DNA of 64,000 nucleotides from NCBI GenBank assembly GCA_964594455.1, contig CAZQLY010000004.1, forward strand, positions 61,972-125,971, written 5' to 3'. Of the stretch, positions 17,100 to 28,010 are shown piece by piece. Both the position numbers and the translations under genes were made by a program. Each line of letters starts with the position of its first letter. Position 1 is the stretch's first letter. The notes beneath the pieces were generated by a model. That model was not told the origin of the DNA. It was given only the letters and a program-made list of their open reading frames with translations, and searched no databases. This DNA is from an uncultured Gammaproteobacteria bacterium (GTDB lineage: Bacteria; Patescibacteriota; Patescibacteriia; JAHIZJ01).

Positions 17100-18290
17100 T
17101 CAGGCTACTCTGTTATTCCCTTCAGAAAAGCCATCGCTCTCCCATTGGAGACGGATAACCTCGGAACCGAAGAGAATCTCAGAAGCGATCTGCCGCAGCA
17201 CCTGGTAGACCTCGTCTTGATCGTCGCTTGCACAATCGGTTGAACAGTAACCGGCCGCTGTCACCATGATTTGCTTGGGGTCCTGATCGTTCCAGATCTT
17301 CAGGTGGTGCAGTAAGCGATCTAGCTCAGTCGAATCTTCCAGGCCGCTTTGCTCCAGGATCTCGCTGAGGATCAGCCATTCACCGACCAGCTCAACCAGC
17401 TTATGGCAATGCAGCTGCCAGAAAGCCTGTTTGGCTCTCTGAGTCGTAGTAGCAGCAATCCAGAGCAGTGCCAGATAAACTGGGTCCTGCCCATGCCGCT
17501 TAATCCAATCAGGCATCTGGCGCGTCAACTCCTCAGCCTTGAGCACTCTGGCAATCGGCGGCTTGCTTCCCCAACCCTCCAGAATCCCCACCAGCCTCTC
17601 ATGCTGCTTGGGATCGCTTGGAATATCAAAGGCGTAAGCTACGTCCGCAAGCTCCTTCCAGCCACCCACCATTTCAGCAATATTGCTTAGCGGGTTGCTG
17701 TGCTCGGGCCAAGGAATCGTTTGTTGATCCTCGACCTCCTGATCAGTCGCTGAGAACCGGCTGCTTGGATCGAGATCCCTTACGAGTCGGGCACTCCTGA
17801 AATGAGCTACCGAAGAAGGTGGAATGGTCTGGCCACCGGAGGTGCTGCCTGTTCCCGGCTTCCTTACCAGAGATTGGCGCTCGTGACTGCTTACTCCACC
17901 GTCCGGTCCATAGAACCGCTGGTAGTAGTGAACTGCCCGGTTAACCAATAGCTGGAAAAAAGCTGGTTCAATCGGTCTAGGAACGAAGCCGTTGGCCCCG
18001 CATTTCGAAGCAGCTTGCCGGTAGCTTTCGAACTCGTTCGGATCATTGACTTCGCCCACCAGATAGATCATGACGATTCTCAGGTTGGGCATTCTTCTGA
18101 TTTCCGAGACCAGCCTTAAACAGTCCGGGTCGCTGTTCTCGATGAAAATCGCCGTCGGGATAACACCTTCGGTCACTTCGAAGACCTCGATCGAGCAAGT
18201 GGTCGAGTAGATCACTTCGTGCCCGATAAGAAGACTACGGTAAACTTCATGCCTGTTCACATCCGAGTCAAAGACCAACATCAGTGACAT
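17100..18290 (-). CDS. hypothetical protein with an N-terminal receiver (CheY-like)-type domain
   Basis: RBS gaggagg. The N-terminus MSLMLVFDSD...IFIENSDPD...RIVMIYLVGE is REC-like. The C-terminal ~270 aa are unknown. GC-rich. Confidence 0.5.
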   Translation of the reverse strand: MSLMLVFDSDVNRHEVYRSLLIGHEVIYSTTCSIEVFEVTEGVIPTAIFIENSDPDCLRLVSEIRRMPNLRIVMIYLVGEVNDPNEFESYRQAASKCGANGFVPRPIEPAFFQLLVNRAVHYYQRFYGPDGGVSSHERQSLVRKPGTGSTSGGQTIPPSSVAHFRSARLVRDLDPSSRFSATDQEVEDQQTIPWPEHSNPLSNIAEMVGGWKELADVAYAFDIPSDPKQHERLVGILEGWGSKPPIARVLKAEELTRQMPDWIKRHGQDPVYLALLWIAATTTQRAKQAFWQLHCHKLVELVGEWLILSEILEQSGLEDSTELDRLLHHLKIWNDQDPKQIMVTAAGYCSTDCASDDQDEVYQVLRQIASEILFGSEVIRLQWESDGFSEGNNRVA

Positions 18291-18707
18291 AGCATACCTC
18301 CTCTGCTGACTCAAATAAAAAGAGCCTCAAAGGAGGCGTCTGATATGGGCCATTCCTTGACCCAGAAGCTGTGGCGAAATTACCCGCAAGTTAATGCCGG
18401 TTACGCTACTGGCTCCCGATAGTCCGTTCTCCCGAGCTTATTCCAAGCTATTTGAGAGAAAAGCGTCCAAATTACAGACTATCGATCAGCGCCTCATTAA
18501 CACATCCTGGCGTTTCCAGAATGGTTCAGCGGGATTGTAGCACTAGACCAGTGGTTTGTCAAGGGGTTATTGTATTATTTCAATTGACTTAAAAATAACC
18601 TTTTGATTTCTTATCTTTGTAACCATTCCCTCCGACTACTGAACGACGGTAGAACCGCGGTATTGAGCGGAAAGTCCAATTTCTGCTTCCGTGAAGTAGC
18701 CCTGTAG

Positions 18708-19787
18708 TCAGATACCCGATTCGTCTTTCCCCGTTGCGTCACGTACCTGTTGTGCCAGCTTTTTCGTATTCCCGTGCCGTAACAGACCTAAATATGACTG
18801 AACGGTAGCTTCTGCCACCTGCTTGGCCTTGATGTTTTTGAACATTCTCCGCCTGGCCACGGTACGCAGTATGCGATGGTCGGGAAAATGCACCCAGCCC
18901 AGAAAATCCACTCCCGAAGCCACGGTCTCAATGGATACTTTGTCAGGGTGCAAATCCAGGTGCAGTCTGTCAGACAAAAAGTTCCTGATAAAAGACAAAA
19001 TACTTTCCAACCGCGCTTTATCTGACGAGAAATACACAAAATCGTCAGCATAGCGGATATAGTGCCGGGCTTTCAGTCCGTGCTTCACGTATTGGTCAAA
19101 CTCGTTCATGTAGACATTGACCAGAAGCTGGGAGGTAAGGTTGCCAAGTGGTAAGCCCTTTCCGTGTTCAATAGAAGAAAAACTGCTGATAATCTGGGCA
19201 AGCAGCCATTGAATGTCCGGGTCGGGAATGTAGCGGTTCACGATTTCAGAGAGAACAGAATGGTCTATCGAGGCAAAGAACTTCCTGATGTCGCATTTTA
19301 ATACCCAGCAGGTGCGGGTATGGTTGCGCGATACCTGGCAGGCGTATTTCCGAAACTGGTTAAGAGCTTTATGCGTTCCCTTGTTCACGCGGCAGGAATA
19401 TGAGTCGGCAATAATGGTGCGGTCAAAGAAAGGATAGAGTGCCCGGTACACAGCGTGGTGCAGCAGCCTGTCGCGGACGCTGGTCTTATGGATATTTCTG
19501 GGCTTGGGGTCGGAGATATTAAAAGCGTGGTAGGGCGAGTGCTTATAGGTTTTTCCTACTAAGTCTCGGTGCAGGGCAAGAATGTTAGCCATGAGATGTA
19601 ATTCAAAGAACTGCACGTCGGTGCGTGCCCGCTTGCCGCGCAAAAACTCCTGCCAGGCGTCGAGCAGATTCTCCACGGAAATGATATACTGAAAAGTGTT
19701 AAGAAACTGAATACGTCCCATGATGTCATATTCTACCCCCCCCCCCGCGATTTTGCCAGTGGCGCAAAAAGTAAAAAGCGCGTACAA
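18708..19787 (-). CDS. diversity-generating retroelement reverse transcriptase
   Basis: RT motifs are present, including LPLGNLTSQLLVNVYMNEF (the DGR-type [IL]GxxxSQ) and RYADDFV. There is no endonuclease or maturase domain. The true start may be the ATG at 19719. Confidence 0.85.
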   Translation of the reverse strand: MYALFTFCATGKIAGGGVEYDIMGRIQFLNTFQYIISVENLLDAWQEFLRGKRARTDVQFFELHLMANILALHRDLVGKTYKHSPYHAFNISDPKPRNIHKTSVRDRLLHHAVYRALYPFFDRTIIADSYSCRVNKGTHKALNQFRKYACQVSRNHTRTCWVLKCDIRKFFASIDHSVLSEIVNRYIPDPDIQWLLAQIISSFSSIEHGKGLPLGNLTSQLLVNVYMNEFDQYVKHGLKARHYIRYADDFVYFSSDKARLESILSFIRNFLSDRLHLDLHPDKVSIETVASGVDFLGWVHFPDHRILRTVARRRMFKNIKAKQVAEATVQSYLGLLRHGNTKKLAQQVRDATGKDESGI

Positions 19788-20118
19788 ACTCTGGTACGGC
19801 TACTATCAAACGCTTCCGAAAACGGCCCGTTATTCTCTGGGTCAGAAGGTTGACTGTTTGTTTGTGGACATTATCGAAGCCGTGGCCACGGCCAGCTTTT
19901 TGGCACGACAGGAAAAACTGCCTTACGTCAGGCGGGCTATCCAGAAACTGGACGCTATGAAGATTCTCCTTATGGTGCTTTGGGAGACCAAATCGCTCGA
20001 CAACAAGAAATATGCTGCCCTGTCCGGGCCTTTGGATGAAGTAGGTAGGATGTTAGGCGGCTGGAACGGACAGCTTACAAAACAAAACTCTCCCAGACAA
20101 GGGAGAGAAACGAGGTAA
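19720..20118 (+). CDS. avd: DGR accessory variability determinant (Avd); four-helix-bundle protein
   Basis: KSAYKLWYGYYQTLPKTARYSLGQKVD...FLARQEKL...KILLMVLW...EVGRMLGGW matches the four-helix-bundle/Avd family. Its stop sits immediately before the TR. The start may be GTG at about 19762. Confidence 0.75.
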   Translation: MMSYSTPPPAILPVAQKVKSAYKLWYGYYQTLPKTARYSLGQKVDCLFVDIIEAVATASFLARQEKLPYVRRAIQKLDAMKILLMVLWETKSLDNKKYAALSGPLDEVGRMLGGWNGQLTKQNSPRQGRETR

Positions 20119-20119
20119 G

Positions 20120-20242
20120 TTGCGCGAACCGCCGCAGGGTTGTTGTCATTCCAGTCGTTGTCGAGCCAGTTGTAGTTCCAGTTCCACCTGTCACCGTCCC
20201 AGTTGAGGTAGCGGACGTTGAGATTGCCGTCAGAGTTGCGGT
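20120..20242 (-). repeat. DGR template repeat (TR)
   Basis: 123-bp repeat of 20607..20729. On the minus strand it carries A at 11-12 positions where the VR copy differs. The shared GC-rich 3' segment ttgcgcgaaccgccgcagggttg looks IMH-like. Confidence 0.8.
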
Positions 20243-20598
20243 TCTGTACAGCGTGCCGTCTATGCCACTGCCCTTTGAATACTCTTGGGGCTGTATCGTA
20301 TACGGCATAATAAATGCCCTAGCACGCTATACCAAGTAACTTCGTTTTTTGAGCGCCGTATTCTATTCTACTCCAAACTATAGCCTGGAATACTCGAAGA
20401 AATATGGTCACTGGATTCGGTCGTCAGCAACAGTAGTCGCTGACTGATTAACCTAGTACCGTTATTTAGTTTACAAAAAAGAAAAGACCCGCGCCATCCC
20501 GGTTGCGTCAGCACACCGGGACCACGCGGGCCGAGCGGACAAAGCTCTAAGAACTGAAATCAAAGACCAAAGAGGTCTAGGAGTTCAAGCTCAAAGTG

Positions 20599-21162
20599 CT
20601 ACTTACTTGCGCGAACCGCCGCAGGGTTGCCGTCACCCCAGCCGTTGCCGAGCCAGTTGTAGTGCCAGTACCACCTGTCACCGCCCCAGTAGAGGTAGCG
20701 GACGCTGAGATTGCCGTAAGAGTTGCGGTAGATGGTGCCCCAGAAGAACACAGCCCTGCCCTTCCAGCTTTCGGGGATGAGCTGATGGTTGGCCAGCAGG
20801 TAGTCGAGGACGCAGGCGTTCAGGACGGGCTGACCTTCCAGCTTCTTGCGAAGCTCGTTGCCGACGATAGAGCCGTCCTTCTGCCCTTTATCGAGGTAGA
20901 GAGCGACGGCGTCGCTGCTCCACTCGAACTTGCCACCCTTCTTGTGCTCGAAGACTTCCCAGCCGTCGGGGATGAAGGGGTTGGCGTCACAGTCGATTAT
21001 TCGTCTCGTGACCGCGACCTCCAACTGGCCGCGAATGAGGCCCCGAATCAGGTCAAGGTGAGGCGAAGTGCGGAGCTTTGTCACATCGTCGGGAGTGTAA
21101 CCACTGGCCTCCAGCGCGTCGCCGAGCTGGTTCATCTGGCCGACCGAGTACAGCATTGACAT
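20599..21162 (-). CDS. DGR variable target protein with C-terminal VR (C-type-lectin/FGE-like variable region)
   Basis: RBS aaggag. C-terminus ...NLSVRYLYWGGDRWYWHYNWLGNGWGDGNPAAVRASK is encoded by the VR. Confidence 0.75.
   Translation of the reverse strand: MSMLYSVGQMNQLGDALEASGYTPDDVTKLRTSPHLDLIRGLIRGQLEVAVTRRIIDCDANPFIPDGWEVFEHKKGGKFEWSSDAVALYLDKGQKDGSIVGNELRKKLEGQPVLNACVLDYLLANHQLIPESWKGRAVFFWGTIYRNSYGNLSVRYLYWGGDRWYWHYNWLGNGWGDGNPAAVRASK
20607..20729 (-). repeat. DGR variable repeat (VR)
   Basis: See the TR feature. Mismatches against TR fall almost exclusively at TR adenines. Confidence 0.8.
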
Positions 21163-21565
21163 CGTCAACTCCTTTCGTTTGGACACGTTCTTGATTAGAA
21201 CCCGTCCTGCCTTTTGCTTATGGCTACACCGTGCAGCCATAGCTAGAAACCGCCCCTTGTCTGGAGAAGCTTGTAGCTATGGCCACAAACGCAAGTAAAA
21301 ATATCCTTGTAAAGTACAGACAGGGCAGAGTATCATATTTACTCGTTTACGTCAAGCCCCATTGTAAAAACTACAATTGACATCCAAACCCAGTTCTGAT
21401 ATCCTCATCTGAAGATCTTTACAACCATTCCCTCTGGTGAAAAGGCTAGAAAAGTTCCAGCTTTCTCGCTGGAGGGAATCTAAGGATGGTGGTCAAAAAA
21501 ACACCCGGATTGTAATAGTCGCACAATCCACCCTTTTTCCTTCTGGGCCGTATCCACTAAAGAAA

Positions 21566-21721
21566 CACAATGCGATTTCTACTCCTCCTGGTGTTGACCA
21601 TCATTCTTGCCAAACTGTTCATTCCCGAGATTGCCGGACCTCTCGTCGACATCTTCAGCAAGTTGCTAACTGCTCTGTCCGTCTTTCTCGAACACCTGAT
21701 TGCTTCTGTCCCTGTTACCTA
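21566..21721 (+). CDS. small (51 aa) membrane peptide, hypothetical
   Basis: MRFLLLLVLTIILAKLF... followed by a strong terminator at 21760-21790. Confidence 0.35.
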
Positions 21722-22252
21722 GAGTAACAGCGACAGACAACACCTTGCGCCCCAATTGACTACCTATAGTCAGGGGCGCTTTTTTTTATTTGCCTAAATC
21801 CAATCCATCTACTCTATATGTAAGCGAGCGTTAACGCTCGCTTACGAATAGGGCTATCTTTAGCCATTGCAAATAACCCGCCGCAGGATTTATACTGCAC
21901 CAAATGCAATAAAATACAAATCGGGGGCGGGTTTTTGATTTTAAAACAACGGCCTTAGTTTCCTAAGGCCGTTGAATATTTATGATCCGCAAGTGCAGGG
22001 ATCATTGCCACAAGTTGGACATGGTTCCAACATTTTGTAGTCTCCCATCTTTACGGTTTAGCTTTGTTTTTGAATTATATCATATATTATATCTAGGCAA
22101 AAAATTAATAAATTTAGCTAAAGTAAGATAAATTTCTAAAGAATAGCTAAACTCAAACGTTAAAATACTGTTATTTTATCCCCATTTTATTGCCTTTTTT
22201 TAAATTTCAGCTATAATAAGTGCAGAATGTTAATAACTTATTAAGGAGACGT

Positions 22253-22587: not shown

Positions 22588-24309
22588 TTATCTCGCTGCG
22601 AAGAAGTGTCCGGTGGCAATTTTTACGCCAGTCTGTACGTTGGCTGGAAAGGCTAAGAACTCATGATAAATCTGAGCACCATCTTCACGCAATATTCTCA
22701 CTAAAGCTTGGTCGCCCGATCGCACTGCTACTACCCACTCATCTCGGCCATTATAATTAAAGTCTCCACCGGCCACGCTAACCCCGCCCCGGAAGTCAGG
22801 ATGGAATACAAAATATCCCGGATGCTTCAAACCTGTGCTGCCATCTTCACGTCGACCGAACATTCTGACATGTGGTCCGCCCCTAGTTTCCGGTCCGGTC
22901 AATATTTCATACTGACCATCACCATTCCAATCCAACGTGCCAAAGCTCACGCCGCCTCTGAAATCCTGCTGATAGGCAAAGAAGCCTAATATTCTTTCCT
23001 GAAATCTTCCATCAATAATATTAAACATGCGAACGTGCGGTCCCCCGCTATTGACCGAAGGAACAGTTAGCAGTTCATCCTTACCCATACCGTCAACGTT
23101 TGCTACTGTGATGCTTACACCTCCTCGGAGCTGAGGGCTGTAAGCAAAAAAGTTTTCGATCACCGGAGTATATTTTCCGTTCCGATAACCAAAGGTACGA
23201 ATATTTGGACCACCGTTGGAAGCTGGGGCTGTAACTATTTCCGCGCCCTGCCGGCCATCTAATTCTCCTAAGGCAACGTTTACTCCGCCAGTAAACCCAT
23301 CGTCATAAGCCAAGAAGCTATTTATTAAAATACCCTGGTAATTAAAAACTCTAATCTCTGGGATGCGTCCAGGGCCAGGACCTACGACTATTTCATCAAT
23401 GCCGTCATTCCCCAGATCACCCACCGCAACATTTACTCCTCCACGGAACGCTTCTTCATAGGCAAAAAACTGTGATAATAATTCTCCCTCTTTGTTGAAT
23501 ACTCTGATCTGGGGTCCTCCGCCCTGGTTTGCCGCCGCTACCACGTAGGTTTCTTGCAGCAATATTTGTTCTCCTCCTTCCGCGGTGCACTCACGACTTT
23601 CACCGGGTTTATACTCTTCTGTTCCACAGGAATTTTGGTCGGTGCATTCTCTGGTTTGTTGACCTTGGCTGCATTCTAACCAATCAGTACAAGTCCAATT
23701 CTCTTCACAGATATCTTGATTTTCTTCACAAGACTGGCTCTCAGACGGCTTATCTTGATAAGTACCGCAAGCGTTCAAGTCAACACAGGTTCGAGTTTGC
23801 TCCCCATCTATGCATTCGGTCCAAGTAGAACAAGACCAGCTTTCAAAACAGGCTGTTGTTTTTGCTGCCACGTTTGATAACAACGATTCATTGTCTTCGT
23901 CATCATATGTTTTGATGGCAAAATAATATGTAGTTTTGGGATTCAGTCCTGTGATCAAAAATGTTTCAGTAGAATTAGCTGACTTTGGTGTGGGAGGGTT
24001 TTGAACAACTGTGGCTTGACTCCAATTATTATTGGTAATGGAAAAGGTGGCGTAACGGATATCATAACGCACTGCTTGGCCAATATAGCTGTCATCTCCT
24101 GGAGCAGTCCAAGACATTGTCACAGAGTTTGAAGCATCCGCGGCTAAAACAGAAGGGAAAGAAACTGCCGCCGTTGTTACCACATTACCCGCAAAGACAA
24201 TTACCAACATTTTCAAAAACACCCAAAGCATTCCCATAAATAAAGGATAAGCAACTAATCTACTGGTAATGGTTTTGGTAGAAGTGGCCGTCGGAATATA
24301 CATAATCAT
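22588..24309 (-). CDS. surface protein: TM anchor, FN3 domain, two Cys-rich modules, FG-GAP-like beta-propeller repeats
   Basis: Repeats GDxxGDGxxEIxxGPGxGGGPxIRxF. Cys module CxxxWxCxxWxxCxxGxQTRxCxDxNxCG. 4-bp overlap with the upstream giant gene. Confidence 0.8.
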   Translation of the reverse strand: MIMYIPTATSTKTITSRLVAYPLFMGMLWVFLKMLVIVFAGNVVTTAAVSFPSVLAADASNSVTMSWTAPGDDSYIGQAVRYDIRYATFSITNNNWSQATVVQNPPTPKSANSTETFLITGLNPKTTYYFAIKTYDDEDNESLLSNVAAKTTACFESWSCSTWTECIDGEQTRTCVDLNACGTYQDKPSESQSCEENQDICEENWTCTDWLECSQGQQTRECTDQNSCGTEEYKPGESRECTAEGGEQILLQETYVVAAANQGGGPQIRVFNKEGELLSQFFAYEEAFRGGVNVAVGDLGNDGIDEIVVGPGPGRIPEIRVFNYQGILINSFLAYDDGFTGGVNVALGELDGRQGAEIVTAPASNGGPNIRTFGYRNGKYTPVIENFFAYSPQLRGGVSITVANVDGMGKDELLTVPSVNSGGPHVRMFNIIDGRFQERILGFFAYQQDFRGGVSFGTLDWNGDGQYEILTGPETRGGPHVRMFGRREDGSTGLKHPGYFVFHPDFRGGVSVAGGDFNYNGRDEWVVAVRSGDQALVRILREDGAQIYHEFLAFPANVQTGVKIATGHFFAAR

Positions 24310-27300
24310 AGTGTTTCTAGATCGGTTATTCGTCCCGGGGGTGTCGAATCACAGCTTTGTATTTCGTCCGGTTTGTTGGAGTCAGCACCGCAATTATTTT
24401 GGTCAGAGCACTGCCTGGTCTGATAGCTGTCAACACAAATAGACCATTCAGTACATTGCCATTCTGGAGTACAATCACTAATCCCGTCCATAACCGTGAT
24501 AGTTATCGAATCAGTATCAATACCTTCATAATCATCCGTAACAGTAAAGACGATATCGGTATATACGCCTGACTGTTCAGTGTCGGGCTGCCAAGAAAAT
24601 GATCCCGTTCTATCACCATTATCAATAAATGCTGCGCCTTCGGGCAGATTATCTGCCGTTAAAACTAAGGTGTCTGCTACATCATCGTCTGTGGCAATAA
24701 TAGTAAACTCCAAACTGTCCATCTCATGAATGTTTTTGTCCTCAGCGTCAACCAGGCTTGGCTGTCTATTGGTATTAGCAATAGTGATAGTGATAAATTC
24801 AGCGTCAGTAGTAAGACTATCAGTCACACTGAAACTAACAAAAGGATAATTGGCAGCTTGGTCATAATCCGGCGTCCAAGAAAATGTCGCTGTCTTATCA
24901 CCATGGTCCTGAAGGTCTGAGCCGGCCGGACCATTATACATAGTGAATACCAGCGTATCGCTATCGCTGTCAGTGGCGCTAAGATCAAACGTTAAAAGCT
25001 CTCCTTCTGATCCCTCTTGTGATCCAATAGGGGCGAGGACTGGGCGGAAACTAAACTCTAAGGCTGTTGAATACTCGGAGGGTGTGGTTTCAAAATCGGT
25101 CCCCTCTTCGACAGCTGAAACTCTATACTTCCAAGTACCTGTGGTTGGCTCATCCAGATAAGAGATGATTGAGCCATCAGTTTGATCGACCGTATCCACC
25201 AAGATTTCTTCTTCTGTATTAACATTCTTTCTGTAAACATTATAATAATTTATGTCATCTTCAGAATTTGGCGTCCATTCGACTCTGACATAATCACCAT
25301 TATGCCTGGTAGCTGTAGGCTGGGCTGGACTATTGGGCCGATTCTGATCCAAGGCCTGGATTAATTCTGCTACTGTCATGCCCGAGTGGCCAATTATATA
25401 AATCGGCGCCATATCTATATCAACATCAAAACTACTGCCTGAACCGACATCAATCGGGTTTCCTTCGATATCAATGACATCAACATTATCTGTATTAACA
25501 GGCACTCCTTCCAAACCCGCCCCGCTGTATTCCTGGTCATAATTAAAGATTGTGGCAATAGGCACGGTTTGATCTGGAAGATTCAAATCAGGAGCCTCAA
25601 AAATAAATGCTCGACTATAATCGTCAAGGATCCCATTGGTTCTCAGGTCTTCGGTTTCTACACGTCGAATATACTCGGAATTTTCCAGCAAAGTCGTCAT
25701 CTGAGCGTAAGCAGTGGCAGTAATCATGGGAGTATTGTCGTATTCAAAAAAGCTATAACCTAAATACGTCGGTGCGTAGGTATTGAATAGTCCAAAGAAA
25801 AATCCTTTATCAATCCCATTAGCTATTAAATATAAGTGAACACGAATACTATCTGATGTAACCTTCCGAGCCATGGGTATTGATCCACTCATATTCTTCC
25901 ATTGCTGCCAATCTGAATCGCCTACCCAGCCAGGCACACCATTAACCATGGCTGTATCAGGATAAATTCTTGGATGGTTGTAGCCAAACTCGCTATTCCA
26001 GTTTGGCTTTGTATTCTCGCCATCCGGTGAAGAATCATCCAAACGCCCCATCCAGGTGTTTATTCCATCATCAATATCGGTCCGGCTCGTTCCTGAACCA
26101 TCTTCGGGTATTTGACGAAATCCATGTTGGAATCGATCATAATGATGTGGTGCAAAAATATCAAACAACCCATATCCAGAACCATGGATACCATCATCAT
26201 ATGTCAGCATTTCATTTAACCAATCATCACCACGGCTAGGGCCAACAACTTTGTTTTCAATCGTATCTTGGTTGGCGTGGATAGCCTCTTCGGCCCGCCA
26301 AAGATAAGCATAATATTCTTCCGCTTCTAAGGTGTTTGGTTCATTCAATACTTCATAAGCATTTATATCATCACCGTAATGTTCAACTGCAGTCCCGACA
26401 AATTGCTGCCAAGTTCCCGCTGGCCCCTCTTCTCTACCGATCACCGGCATCAAAGAAATATGATGGTTGGCTGCTGCCTCTACATAATCATCTAAGTAAG
26501 GGTCTTCATCAATGCCGTCTTCAATATTATCTTTAACAATCATCGGGAATTCTCGGGAGTACTTTATGCCCAGATCACGGGCTATTTCTAAATACTCATT
26601 GAGCGGACGGTTAGCAGAAAAATAGTAATGATCATAGGTACTGCTGATATCCAACAAACCTAACGATACATGGTTTCCAAAAAATGAATCAGTTATATCC
26701 TGATCCCGATAAGGAGATTTCTCCGCAATTCCCAGGACTAAAAACTCTTTATCCAGCATCTTTGATTCATCGGGTGTCCAGAGTTCATAAGCCAGGGTAA
26801 ACCACCCCTTGGATTTTAATGGCGCTGCCGCGGCTATCAGGCTGGATAAATCTTGGGTTATAGTCTGACGGTTAGAAGCATCATGTGAAACCAATACCTC
26901 TCCCTGGTCCAAAGCCGTATTTGTATCAAAATAATCCCCTAAGCTGTCATACAGCTGCCATTTTATTTTCGAATCGTTATCTAACGAGGTTTTTTCCAAA
27001 ATTTCTAACTGGGTATATATATTCTCACCATCATCCAACCAATAAAAATTACCGTTTTTGGGATTCGCGCCTTCTGCATCGGTAGAAGTGTAGGCAAATA
27101 GTTCTTGCTGAGAAGTTTGATAGATATAATCAGTTGGTGCGGGATTACTCTGGTTGGAAGCATACTCAAACTGTATAGCGTCAACTAAAAGAACTCCCAT
27201 GCCCCAACACTGGGGCTGGAGAGTACTACTAACTAATAATTCCGGATGAAATATCTCCCCAGCCTGGATCATGGGGTCGCTAGTGGTTGCAACATACACT

Positions 27301-28010
27301 CGTTTCCAGCCCTCAGCTGGTGTAACACTAAATTGACCAGACCCTTCAGTATAGTTATCCCAGATATCGTTATAAATCCTCAAACGAACTCCAATAGCTG
27401 TGTTGGAGCAAGAATCATTGTCATCAACTTGTCCTCCAACCTCTGTGGCCTTTAGCCAAACAGAAAAAACATATCGGCCAGTTTCTGGTGCTGTAATATA
27501 ATTGAGATCAATAGAGGCTCCTCCGGCATTACGATTATCAAATTTTAAACTGTATTCTCCATCGTAAGAATCTTCATCAGTTAGACTTGTCATAACTAGG
27601 CCTCGAACCGGATCGTCAGCAAAAATATCACCACTACCAGGGTTGTAATAGTCATAATGAAGCCTCTGAGTAACGCTGATGGAATCGTAGACCCCATTAA
27701 CGCCAAACTCAAAACTCGAGTCCTCGGAAATCAAATTTCTAGTCTGATACTCACCGCATAATTCACCCTCAGACACGTCACCACGATAAGTGCAATGATT
27801 CTCATAGGTCTCCGAATAAGGATATGAAACGCCTTTTACCTCTCCTGAGGCACCCGTCGAATCATTTAGGTTCAATGAATAAAAAAAACCGACCAGCAAA
27901 ACCAGTCCGAGATATAGCACGATTAAAGCGTTTGTAGCCGATTTGCTCAGCCACACCCACAGTTCGTTCTTCTGTTTTACTTTCTTTTTCTTGGAACGCA
28001 TTGCGCTCAA
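24306..28010 (-). CDS. giant (1234 aa) membrane-anchored surface glycoside hydrolase (clan GH-A/GH5-like) with putative-Ig (He_PIG-like) repeats and a C-terminal Cys-rich module
   Basis: N-terminal TM helix. AYEVLNEPN contains the GH5 acid/base NEP motif. Tandem Ig-like repeats. C-terminal CTPEWQCTEWSICVDSYQTRQCSDQNNCG. Confidence 0.7.
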   Translation of the reverse strand: MSAMRSKKKKVKQKNELWVWLSKSATNALIVLYLGLVLLVGFFYSLNLNDSTGASGEVKGVSYPYSETYENHCTYRGDVSEGELCGEYQTRNLISEDSSFEFGVNGVYDSISVTQRLHYDYYNPGSGDIFADDPVRGLVMTSLTDEDSYDGEYSLKFDNRNAGGASIDLNYITAPETGRYVFSVWLKATEVGGQVDDNDSCSNTAIGVRLRIYNDIWDNYTEGSGQFSVTPAEGWKRVYVATTSDPMIQAGEIFHPELLVSSTLQPQCWGMGVLLVDAIQFEYASNQSNPAPTDYIYQTSQQELFAYTSTDAEGANPKNGNFYWLDDGENIYTQLEILEKTSLDNDSKIKWQLYDSLGDYFDTNTALDQGEVLVSHDASNRQTITQDLSSLIAAAAPLKSKGWFTLAYELWTPDESKMLDKEFLVLGIAEKSPYRDQDITDSFFGNHVSLGLLDISSTYDHYYFSANRPLNEYLEIARDLGIKYSREFPMIVKDNIEDGIDEDPYLDDYVEAAANHHISLMPVIGREEGPAGTWQQFVGTAVEHYGDDINAYEVLNEPNTLEAEEYYAYLWRAEEAIHANQDTIENKVVGPSRGDDWLNEMLTYDDGIHGSGYGLFDIFAPHHYDRFQHGFRQIPEDGSGTSRTDIDDGINTWMGRLDDSSPDGENTKPNWNSEFGYNHPRIYPDTAMVNGVPGWVGDSDWQQWKNMSGSIPMARKVTSDSIRVHLYLIANGIDKGFFFGLFNTYAPTYLGYSFFEYDNTPMITATAYAQMTTLLENSEYIRRVETEDLRTNGILDDYSRAFIFEAPDLNLPDQTVPIATIFNYDQEYSGAGLEGVPVNTDNVDVIDIEGNPIDVGSGSSFDVDIDMAPIYIIGHSGMTVAELIQALDQNRPNSPAQPTATRHNGDYVRVEWTPNSEDDINYYNVYRKNVNTEEEILVDTVDQTDGSIISYLDEPTTGTWKYRVSAVEEGTDFETTPSEYSTALEFSFRPVLAPIGSQEGSEGELLTFDLSATDSDSDTLVFTMYNGPAGSDLQDHGDKTATFSWTPDYDQAANYPFVSFSVTDSLTTDAEFITITIANTNRQPSLVDAEDKNIHEMDSLEFTIIATDDDVADTLVLTADNLPEGAAFIDNGDRTGSFSWQPDTEQSGVYTDIVFTVTDDYEGIDTDSITITVMDGISDCTPEWQCTEWSICVDSYQTRQCSDQNNCGADSNKPDEIQSCDSTPPGRITDLETL

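Follow-up and report, generated by a model that had tools for sequence, protein, structure and literature searches.

Diversity-generating retroelements of CPR bacteria

The closest described relatives of the element reported here are the diversity-generating retroelements (DGRs) of CPR bacteria. Wu et al. (2018, Nucleic Acids Res 46:11; PMC5758913) designated the layout TR-(avd)-RT as architecture B3, which constitutes 90% of the CPR DGRs and is nearly absent elsewhere. The corresponding clade 2 of Roux et al. (2021; PMC8144416) groups cell-encoded DGRs that are restricted to Patescibacteria and whose targets carry no recognisable domains. With respect to RNA, a preprint by Handa et al. (10.1101/2023.10.23.563531) reports that in 207 of 278 DGRs a putative Avd-binding stem-loop follows closely on TR; CPR are among the lineages that it names as having such RNA elements.

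The stretch of DNA analysed in this work (64,000 nucleotides, hereafter the window) contains a complete and apparently intact DGR, which confirms an observation made in an earlier note on the same DNA. Order and strands are those of the CPR-type B3 and clade 2 elements (target with VR, TR, reversed avd, RT), and the gene layout is no different. The element is likewise chromosomal, those of its RT kin that bear a source name are mostly Patescibacteria, and its target is small and carries no recognisable or transmembrane domain. The surroundings are those of a chromosome and not of a phage, since they include genes for SOD, Ham1, an ABC transporter and HU as well as tRNAs. The features discussed below are the following:

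18708-19721, minus strand: DGR RT gene, 337 aa, with LPLGNLTSQ and YADD motifs; start taken from homologue alignment
19730-19735, minus strand: -10-like hexamer TAGAAT, right after the G tract and 8 nt before the RT ATG; promoter scan CTGGCA-18-TAGAAT
19736-19746, no strand assigned: homopolymer that separates the avd and RT starts, C11 on the plus strand and G11 on that of RT
19753-20118, plus strand: avd gene, four-helix bundle, found with the Pfam bAvd and NCBIfam DivGenRetAVD profiles; start uncertain
20079-20109, minus strand: stem-loop (CUCUCCC/GGGAGAG) followed by UUUUGUUUU, starting 10 nt after TR, within the last avd codons of the other strand; terminator-like scan match
20120-20242, minus strand: TR, with 34 adenines; 20120-20142 is the IMH*-like segment
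20243-20463, minus strand: structured 5′ leader of the template RNA, 8 helices, from nhmmer and covariation
20468-20475, minus strand: extended -10 box (TG-TAAACT), promoter-like, for the template RNA, from the clade comparison
20473-20532, minus strand: intrinsic-terminator-like element of the target gene, with a GC-rich stem of about 20 bp (20486-20532) and then UUUUCUUUUUU on the coding strand
20540-20596, minus strand: CTTNG array of five pentamers and one CTTGA variant, 7-13 nt apart, directly 3′ of the target stop codon
20599-21162, minus strand: target (variable protein) gene, 187 aa; homologues start with MSM or MST
20607-20729, minus strand: VR, encoding the last ~40 target residues, from a gapless alignment with a table of mismatches; the GC-rich, IMH-like part that matches TR exactly is 20607-20629

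The TR/VR pair

The repeats proposed in the earlier note at 20120-20242 and 20607-20729 were upheld by an ungapped alignment: with an offset of 487 nt they match over their 123 bp, and the homology breaks off sharply at either end. TR and VR differ at 12 positions. Eleven of these are T in TR and C, G or A in VR on the plus strand, that is, A to N on the minus strand, and the sole exception is position 20231 (C to A on the plus strand, G to T on the minus strand). For a TR with 27.6% A on the minus strand, the probability that at least 11 of 12 mismatches fall on adenine is 6.5e-6 (binomial), so that the recount agrees with the adenine bias that had been described for all mismatches but one. 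In the VR frame, 33 of the 34 TR adenines occupy the first or second codon position, there are eight in-frame AAC codons, and only 11 of the 34 adenines differ in VR.

The first 23 bp are the same in both repeats (20120-20142 and 20607-20629) and have a GC content of about 70%, as previously remarked for this 3′ segment. With TR and VR indistinguishable over these 23 nt of their 3′ ends, any distinction between donor and recipient must lie downstream of the repeats. A second VR was sought across the whole 64-kb window and none was found.

The reverse transcriptase gene

The RT reading frame is open over 18708-19787, an extent that had been taken as the gene; the homologues, however, begin at ATG 19721, which reduces the product to 337 aa. 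The LGNLTSQ motif, earlier regarded as diagnostic of DGRs, is present alongside the catalytic YADD. The closest solved structure is that of the Bordetella phage bRT (8ub7, E 2.4e-47), whose IGSLTSQ aligns with LGNLTSQ, while a group II intron RT reaches 7.7e-23; Pfam RVT_1 also matches the protein. Its relatives run to thousands. Among the matches listed identity is 63-73%, and those listed with a source name belong mostly to Patescibacteria or Parcubacteria lineages. By sequence similarity, the RT of the window groups with the DGR RTs of Patescibacteria.

The RT could in principle belong to a group II intron or a retron, the 123-bp repeat being then an ordinary duplication. The best NCBIfam model for this protein is indeed named group II intron RT/maturase (TIGR04416, E 2.6e-42), but its 145 bits are far under the family cut-off of 300, and the best retron model reaches 65 bits against a cut-off of 235. 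Among solved structures, the DGR RT of Bordetella leads by 24 orders of magnitude in E-value. Rfam searches detected neither a group II intron RNA family (positions 18000-22000, E up to 1) nor a retron RNA (msr/msd). Moreover, an Avd gene and adenine-specific mismatches are compatible with a DGR alone. On these grounds an intron or retron identity is refuted, and the chance left to it is negligible.

The avd gene and the arrangement of the element

The avd reading frame extends from 19720 to 20118 and its stop codon finishes 1 nt short of TR. There are two candidate starts: TTG 19753, at which the family profile begins, and ATG 19720, from which the poly-C tract would be read as Pro codons. 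The product scores 40.2 bits with Pfam bAvd (cut-off 40) and 63 bits (E 2e-17) with NCBIfam DivGenRetAVD, the latter below the curated cut-off of 80, and PF22296 is carried by all the Avd homologues listed. Comparison with 4DWL-type structures, which had been suggested as a check, gave a divided result. Searches of the solved PDB structures by sequence and by a 29-sequence profile returned no matches, whereas the predicted model consists of four helices and its best PDB matches are the Bordetella Avd structures 4dwl and 8ub7, albeit weak ones (E about 0.6). The identification as Avd relies on the Pfam and NCBIfam profiles together with this weak structural match, and the proposal of an Avd-like four-helix-bundle gene ending 1 nt before TR is thus supported. 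The tail of Avd that lies opposite the stem-loop following TR is predicted to be disordered.

The earlier note correctly placed avd on the strand opposite to RT, TR and target, but considered this unusual. It is not, since in 74 of the 74 related genome loci with enough upstream flank avd sits immediately upstream of RT and on the other strand. TR is found on the RT strand, close behind the avd stop, in all 57 related loci for which a TR/VR pair was called. From this comparison of loci, a backwards avd is the normal layout for the DGRs of Patescibacteria. The overlap of RT and avd that had been contemplated around 19720-19787 disappears because the starts are reset to 19721 (RT) and 19753 (avd), the two genes being back to back and about 31 bp apart.

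The target gene and its 3′ flank

The target reading frame is open to ATG 21240, and the homologues begin at ATG 21162. With this start the protein has the 187 aa previously attributed to it, and VR spans its last ~40 codons. Searches of the target against Pfam, NCBIfam and PDB sequences returned nothing meaningful; matches to S13 and sigma proteins were discarded as weak (E 0.08 or more). The predicted model of the protein weakly resembles a C-type lectin fold.

The CTTNG array is a property of the VR side of these elements. Across 58 loci the density of the pentamer per 70 nt is 3.34 behind VR, 0.22 behind TR and 0.30 in the background, and its spacing peaks at 7-8 nt.

The RNA of 20455-20606 folds with -63.5 kcal/mol (z = -6.2). 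The GC-rich inverted repeat that had been described at 20468-20515 is real, although its coordinates are now 20486-20532. It looks like the intrinsic terminator of the target gene, a reading based on the hairpin, on the U-run that follows it on the coding strand, on its start 74 nt beyond the VR end and on the presence of a non-homologous hairpin with a T-run at the equivalent place in about two thirds of the related loci. The repeat had instead been compared with the stem-loop that acts in homing in the Bordetella phage. An equivalent of this hairpin or cruciform, in place of the terminator or in addition to it, would agree with the strength and GC-richness of an inverted repeat downstream of VR, and Wu et al. 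(PMC5758913) reported such repeats downstream of IMH in 34% of DGRs. However, the repeat of the window does not adjoin the IMH and is followed by the U-run. In the relatives the hairpins are non-homologous, lie at variable distance and usually carry T-runs, so that neither sequence nor distance is kept, and what is conserved beside VR in the clade is the CTTNG array and not a hairpin. A homing function of the inverted repeat is accordingly considered improbable, and the terminator reading is followed below.

The template RNA

An extended -10 motif (TGnTAnnnT) ends 1-3 nt before the conserved leader in 39 of 48 related leaders, compared to 3% of background windows. The box of the window itself is a weaker match than those of most relatives and is shifted by 1 nt. 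The leader, of about 215 nt, lies directly 5′ of TR, and a 12-bp helix (P5) closes a few nt before TR. In nhmmer searches a single match per DGR, always abutting TR, was obtained in 71 of the 71 related loci that retain the region, and one in the window (E 8e-55). Compensatory changes were found in 45 of the 56 predicted pairs, and 96.3% of the cells are paired, in contrast to 35-48% in slid controls. No Rfam family matched the leader or any DGR RNA.

In 58 of 58 loci TR is followed by a stem-loop, with 54 distinct arm sequences. For a MAFFT alignment of 49 sequences of the TR 3′ region, RNAalifold gave no structure, since the arms differ in length. With 22 sequences it returned an alternative helix, AACUCUCUU:GGGAGAGUU, abutting the TR end, 91% paired and with zero covariation. 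Since covariation is absent, pairing of the 3′ arm of the stem-loop with the nucleotides that abut the TR end is regarded as a mere possibility.

Whether the template RNA ends at this stem-loop can be disputed. TR and RT share a strand and could belong to one long transcript running antisense through avd, in the manner of the Bordetella TR-spacer-brt, the stem-loop being then only a protein-binding element. The stem has a mere 7 bp in the window, its sequence is more conserved than a terminator would require, and Handa et al. interpret the stem-loops just downstream of TR as Avd-binding. Nevertheless, the stem is followed by a U4-G-U4 run of the sort typical for intrinsic terminators, and in many loci the RT ATG is preceded at a constant 13 nt (box plus 7 nt) by a -10-like TAnnnT, which is consistent with a separate, leaderless RT mRNA. 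We consider a single transcript somewhat unlikely and favour a separate template RNA.

The homopolymer tract between avd and RT

The C11/G11 tract is the only G/C run of at least 8 nt in the 64-kb window. Tracts of G6 to G14 (mode 9-11) occupy the equivalent position in 70 of 75 loci and occur almost nowhere else in those loci. The tract is 13 nt from the ATG in 23 loci, and TAnnnT follows it in 26 of 44; this spacing suggests that the RT mRNA is leaderless or near-leaderless. The putative promoter spacer measures 15-22 nt (mode 17-19), and its non-G part is anticorrelated with the length of the G run (rho = -0.60).

A tract of this kind could have arisen in the assembly, or could simply serve ribosome binding or RNA or DNA structure, instead of being a length-variable promoter spacer. 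G homopolymers are error-prone on Illumina, and a Logan contig of the same locus ends 20 nt before the tract; a G-run could also pair with the anti-Shine-Dalgarno sequence, and the avd frame of the window continues without a stop from ATG 19720 across the tract, giving Pro codons. That 70 of 75 independent assemblies have the tract in this place shows that it is not an artefact. A ribosome-binding role has to contend with its end 13 nt before the RT ATG, beyond the normal SD distance. The tract is flanked by TGGCA and TAnnnT boxes whose total spacing centres on 17-19 nt, and the compensation between G length and remaining spacer likewise points to a promoter. As for translation into poly-proline from an upstream avd start, it was rejected as a general feature: a canonical in-frame start upstream exists in only 24 of the 66 loci with the tract inside the avd ORF, and 21 loci have no canonical avd start upstream of the tract or up to 12 nt downstream. 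Taken together, these alternatives to a promoter spacer are on balance quite possible, with a chance somewhat short of even, and the tract is treated below as a promoter spacer.

Homopolymer spacers are known from phase-variable promoters, such as those of Neisseria meningitidis porA and opc and of Bordetella fim. By an analogy that is speculative, the elements studied here share with them a G/C tract of 9-13 nt, of slippage-prone length, between -35-like and -10-like boxes. A difference is that the -35-like box here overlaps conserved avd codons, so that the conservation of the box may be protein-driven.

Working model and activity

We regard it as very probable that the locus is a chromosomal CPR-type (B3) DGR that diversifies the C-terminal ~40 residues of a 187-aa protein with no recognisable domain, operating along the lines proposed here. 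The DGR reading relies on an intact RT, an intact Avd, differences at TR adenines in codon positions 1 and 2, and the stereotyped layout of the clade. In the model, the target would be transcribed from its own promoter up to the intrinsic terminator at 20486-20532. Right after it, the extended -10 promoter would direct a separate non-coding RNA of about 390 nt, composed of the ~215-nt structured leader, the 123-nt TR and the stem-loop with its U-run, antisense to the last avd codons. RT (ATG 19721) and avd (about 19753) would be expressed from a back-to-back start region that holds only the -10-like box and the 11-nt poly-G/C tract. The RT-Avd complex would bind the template RNA, with the stem-loop after TR as the likely Avd-binding element. 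Synthesis of cDNA would begin in the GC-rich 3′ end of TR, adenines being misread, and would halt where the 12-bp leader helix abuts the 5′ end of TR, by analogy with the Bordetella "cPRT Stop" duplex (the RNA logic behind this analogy is described in 10.1101/2023.10.23.563531). The cDNA would finally replace VR, and donor and recipient would be told apart downstream by the stem-loop after TR and the CTTNG array after VR. The model takes the ends of the transcripts, the site of priming, the stop helix and the function of the CTTNG array from conservation only.

A bolder reading is that the DGR of this clade has been rewired in three ways. The template RNA would be a self-contained molecule of ~390 nt whose docking and stop scaffold resides in the 215-nt 5′ leader, by analogy the Bordetella avd-TR-spacer RNA in permuted form; donor and recipient would be distinguished by the CTTNG heptad array that follows VR, in place of IMH/IMH* differences plus a cruciform; and the poly-G tract would gate expression. 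That all three hold together is doubtful. If they do, a slippage-prone poly-G in the back-to-back promoter gates both RT and avd, and hypermutation would itself be phase-variable.

The element might also be decayed or dormant, its TR/VR differences being the remains of past activity with no homing at present. The only other assembly of the locus (Logan, SRR7048224; one contig with the exact target protein) is 100% identical, VR included, and consequently adds nothing on VR variation; no copy of the IMH 23-mer turned up in the metagenome contigs scanned, nor was the exact RT protein found in sequence records. The non-adenine mismatch at 20231 and the small share of TR adenines that differ in VR fit the same view. 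However, the RT, avd and target reading frames are all intact, YADD and LGNLTSQ are kept, the window has every conserved cis element of the clade, and the 11/12 adenine bias would be blurred by ordinary drift. Dormancy appears quite improbable, and we retain the reading of an apparently intact DGR.

Since the gene layout is already catalogued, the window being an ordinary DGR of the CPR type, one more example of such a large class changes little. The value resides in the clade comparison, which reveals a shared compact set of cis elements: terminator, extended -10, leader RNA, TR, stem-loop antisense to the avd tail, poly-G and CTTNG. They offer testable handles on how cDNA is primed, stopped and targeted with a reversed avd and identical IMH and IMH*, and on the on-off switching of hypermutation. 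In the CPR DGR literature examined there was no mention of the leader RNA, the poly-G tract or the CTTNG array, although an earlier description in CPR DGRs is possible; literature on DGRs with homopolymers, phase variation or CPR non-coding RNA yielded nothing relevant.

Comparison with the Bordetella phage element

Knowledge of the DGR mechanism rests almost wholly on the Bordetella phage element, and a second, differently wired RNA would for this reason be useful to specialists. The DGR of BPP-1 (mtd-avd-TR-brt; 4dwl, 8ub7) and that of the window are alike in RT class and motifs, in the four-helix Avd protein and in the adenine-specific pattern from TR to VR. In both, VR closes the target gene at its 3′ end, TR and VR share a GC-rich 3′ segment, and a stem-loop follows TR.

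Unlike in BPP-1, avd of the window is on the other strand, downstream of TR, the equivalents of IMH and IMH* are identical, and no hairpin adjoins VR. The conserved structured RNA comprises ~215 nt on the 5′ side of TR in the window, whereas in BPP-1 it is located in the 140-nt 3′ spacer. Similarly, the duplex that abuts the 5′ end of TR would be formed within the leader in the window, and is formed between avd and the spacer in BPP-1. Finally, the element of the window is cellular while that of BPP-1 is phage-borne.

Repeat Pair and Reverse Transcriptase

The locus is a real and complete diversity-generating retroelement (DGR), typical of its lineage. The earlier note was right on this main point: all four parts of a DGR are there in intact form, together with the adenine-specific pattern. 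The template repeat (TR, 20120-20242) and the variable repeat (VR, 20607-20729), whose coordinates stand as first reported, align without gaps at an offset of 487 nt, with homology stopping abruptly on both sides. They differ at 12 positions, 11 of which are T in the TR and C, G or A in the VR on the plus strand, that is, minus-strand adenine changed to any base; the other one, at 20231, is a minus-strand G to T. The proposed bias towards TR adenines thus holds on recount (P = 6.5e-6, given that 27.6% of the TR is adenine on the minus strand). Read in the minus-strand frame of the target gene, the TR contains eight AAC codons, and of its 34 adenines 33 occupy codon positions 1 or 2. The GC-rich initial 23 bp, which form an IMH-like 3' segment, are identical in both copies. 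There are no additional VR copies within the 64-kb window. No VR variants were found either: a scan of metagenome contigs with the IMH 23-mer was empty, and the only other assembly of the locus is identical.

The listed open reading frame of the reverse transcriptase (RT) begins at a TTG (19787). However, the start was placed at the ATG at 19721, which gives a protein of 337 aa, because 21 homologues all begin at that position. Among solved structures, the reverse transcriptase of the Bordetella phage DGR (8ub7) is the best match, with E 2.4e-47; its IGSLTSQ is aligned to the LGNLTSQ motif of the window RT. Group II intron RTs come next (7.7e-23). The models of both the group II intron and the retron families score far under their cut-offs, in agreement with the earlier reading of the motif.

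Avd and the Layout of the Locus

The plus-strand avd open reading frame matches the Pfam bAvd model with 40.2 bits (cut-off 40) and the NCBIfam DGR Avd model with E 2e-17 and 63 bits, which is under the curated 80. The bAvd domain is present in all Avd homologues among the matches listed. The predicted structure consists of four helices and a disordered tail, and its best PDB matches are Bordetella Avd chains, at a weak E of about 0.6. Searches of the PDB by sequence and by profile gave no matches. The proposed Avd identity is therefore upheld by the family profiles and the weak structural likeness, but not by these PDB searches.

RT relatives number in the thousands, with 63-73% identity among the matches listed, and most of those with a source name are Patescibacteria. 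A set of 80 loci from species-representative genomes was used for comparison. The location of avd on the strand opposite to the RT had been considered unusual, but it is the rule in this group: avd lies directly upstream of the RT gene on the opposite strand in all 74 loci with enough upstream flank, and the layout already has a class of its own, architecture B3, TR-(avd)-RT, which makes up 90% of CPR DGRs and is scarcely found elsewhere (Wu et al. 2018, PMC5758913). In all 57 related loci with a called TR/VR pair, TR and RT share a strand, the TR end is close to the stop codon of avd, and the VR lies about 360-570 nt upstream of the TR.

Elements Flanking the Repeats

The conserved elements between the VR and the TR include:
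20540-20596, minus strand, array of CTTNG pentamers immediately after the VR and the stop codon
20463-20243, minus strand, structured leader of about 215 nt directly 5' of the TR, recognized by conservation and covariation

CTTNG pentamers reach a density of 3.34 per 70 nt after the VR, in contrast to 0.22 after the TR and 0.30 in the background (58 related loci). They are spaced 7-8 nt apart, and the array is absent after the TR. The same motif occurs in the leader RNA as an invariant ACUUGG.

The earlier note likened an inverted repeat after the VR to the homing hairpin of the Bordetella type. The repeat exists, but its coordinates had to be corrected, the true stem being 20486-20532. On the minus strand, which is the coding one, this stem begins 74 nt past the VR end, and UUUUCUUUUUU comes after it. 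In about two thirds of the related loci, a hairpin with a T-run sits roughly as far from the VR, at a distance that varies, and its sequence is not conserved. These features argue against a homing hairpin, and the stem is read instead as the putative intrinsic terminator of the target gene.

After this putative terminator, an extended -10 box (TGnTAnnnT) ends 1-3 nt before the conserved leader in 39 of 48 loci, against 3% of background windows. The box of the window itself, TG-TAAACT (20468-20475), is a weaker match. The leader occurs once per DGR and abuts the TR 5' end in all 71 related loci retaining the region. RNAalifold assigns to it 56 pairs in eight helices, 45 of them with compensatory changes; 96.3% of cells are paired, compared with 35-48% when the partners are slid, and double-change cells number 290, compared with 27-70 in the slid controls. 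One of the helices, P5, has 12 bp and closes within a few nt of the TR. An Rfam search of the leader matched no family.

On the other side of the TR, a stem-loop starts within about 10 nt in 58 of 58 loci; its arms come in 54 distinct sequences, with UUUUGUUUU after the stem-loop. That of the window is at 20088-20107. It sits in the final avd codons of the opposite strand, and the corresponding part of Avd is predicted to be disordered. The 3' part of the RNA could alternatively form a helix that abuts the end of the TR; its pairing is good, but covariation is absent.

The Poly-G Tract between avd and RT

A tract of 6 to 14 G residues (mode 9-11) separates avd from the RT gene in 70 of 75 related loci; in the window the tract occupies 19736-19746, and no other G/C run reaches 8 nt. 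Downstream of the tract there is a TAnnnT box, and the RT ATG typically lies 13 nt past the tract. A TGGCA box precedes the -10-like box at a spacing of 15-22 nt (mode 17-19), and longer G tracts are accompanied by a shorter non-G part of this spacer (rho = -0.60). More speculatively, the tract may be a slippage-prone promoter spacer.

The start of avd next to the tract is ambiguous. A TTG no more than 12 nt after the tract is a candidate start in about half of the loci, and in 21 loci neither the region before the tract nor the first 12 nt after it contains a canonical start. This ambiguity explains why gene-caller lengths of Avd homologues range from 101 to 175 aa.

Genetic Neighbourhood

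Just downstream of the RT gene there is a cyclic-di-GMP-II riboswitch aptamer (RF01786; 18386-18505, minus strand; 60.2 bits versus a gathering threshold of 53.5, E 4e-12). It is preceded by a near-consensus promoter, TTGACA-17-TACAAT (18562-18534), and followed by an open reading frame of 404 aa (17100-18314) that matches no Pfam family. Next to the DGR, the minus strand (22588-28010) codes for two putative surface proteins of large size: one, of 573 aa, carries fn3 and FG-GAP repeats, and the other, of 1234 aa, has Ig-like domains.

A direct repeat of about 100 nt flanks the entire cassette (18554-18654 and 21345-21451, both minus strand), with a local alignment score of 44 versus 21.6 +/- 2.9 in shuffles. 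Its core 20-mer, GAGGGAATGGTTRYAAAGAT, is found only at these two sites within the window. Both copies lead into promoter-like -35 boxes, that of one copy preceding the target gene and that of the other preceding the riboswitch. Flanking direct repeats are also present in three of 52 other loci (L002, L045 and L048). The repeat could be either the footprint of cassette insertion or a common regulatory module.

The related locus L050 (JAJXVV010000002.1, about 5.2-7.0 kb and 11.2-11.9 kb) contains leader, TR and avd a second time, some 6 kb further downstream. Since the second TR matches the same VR as the first (82% versus 84% identity), one target appears to be served by two template cassettes.

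Proposed Mechanism and Comparison with Known DGRs

Judging from conservation across the related loci, the template would be a non-coding RNA in its own right, about 390 nt long and composed of leader, TR and stem-loop, with ends at about 20461 and about 20079-20087. The target mRNA would end near 20473-20485, and the RT would be translated from a leaderless or near-leaderless mRNA with its 5' end at 19721 or 1-2 nt ahead of it. Donor and recipient would be told apart by their downstream flanks, the stem-loop for the TR and the CTTNG array for the VR; this role is assigned to the flanks because the 23-nt 3' segments of both repeats are identical. The accessible literature holds no description of the leader, the poly-G tract or the CTTNG array; Paul et al. 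2017, the main paper on CPR DGRs, lies outside that scope.

The stem-loop after the TR is a putative Avd-binding site. Handa et al. reported putative Avd-binding stem-loops just downstream of the TR in 207 of 278 DGRs and counted CPR as one of the lineages possessing RNA elements of this kind; their analysis upstream of the TR was limited to 40 nt (10.1101/2023.10.23.563531). The conserved leader helix adjacent to the TR may act as a stop for cDNA synthesis, analogous to the 'cPRT Stop' of Bordetella. The predicted cDNA, mutagenised at adenines, would start within 20120-20142 and end a short way ahead of this helix, near 20243-20250. The neighbourhood of the window DGR is chromosomal (SOD, Ham1, ABC transporter, HU and tRNAs), and Roux et al. 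2021 described a DGR clade that is confined to Patescibacteria, is encoded by cells, and has targets without recognisable domains (PMC8144416).
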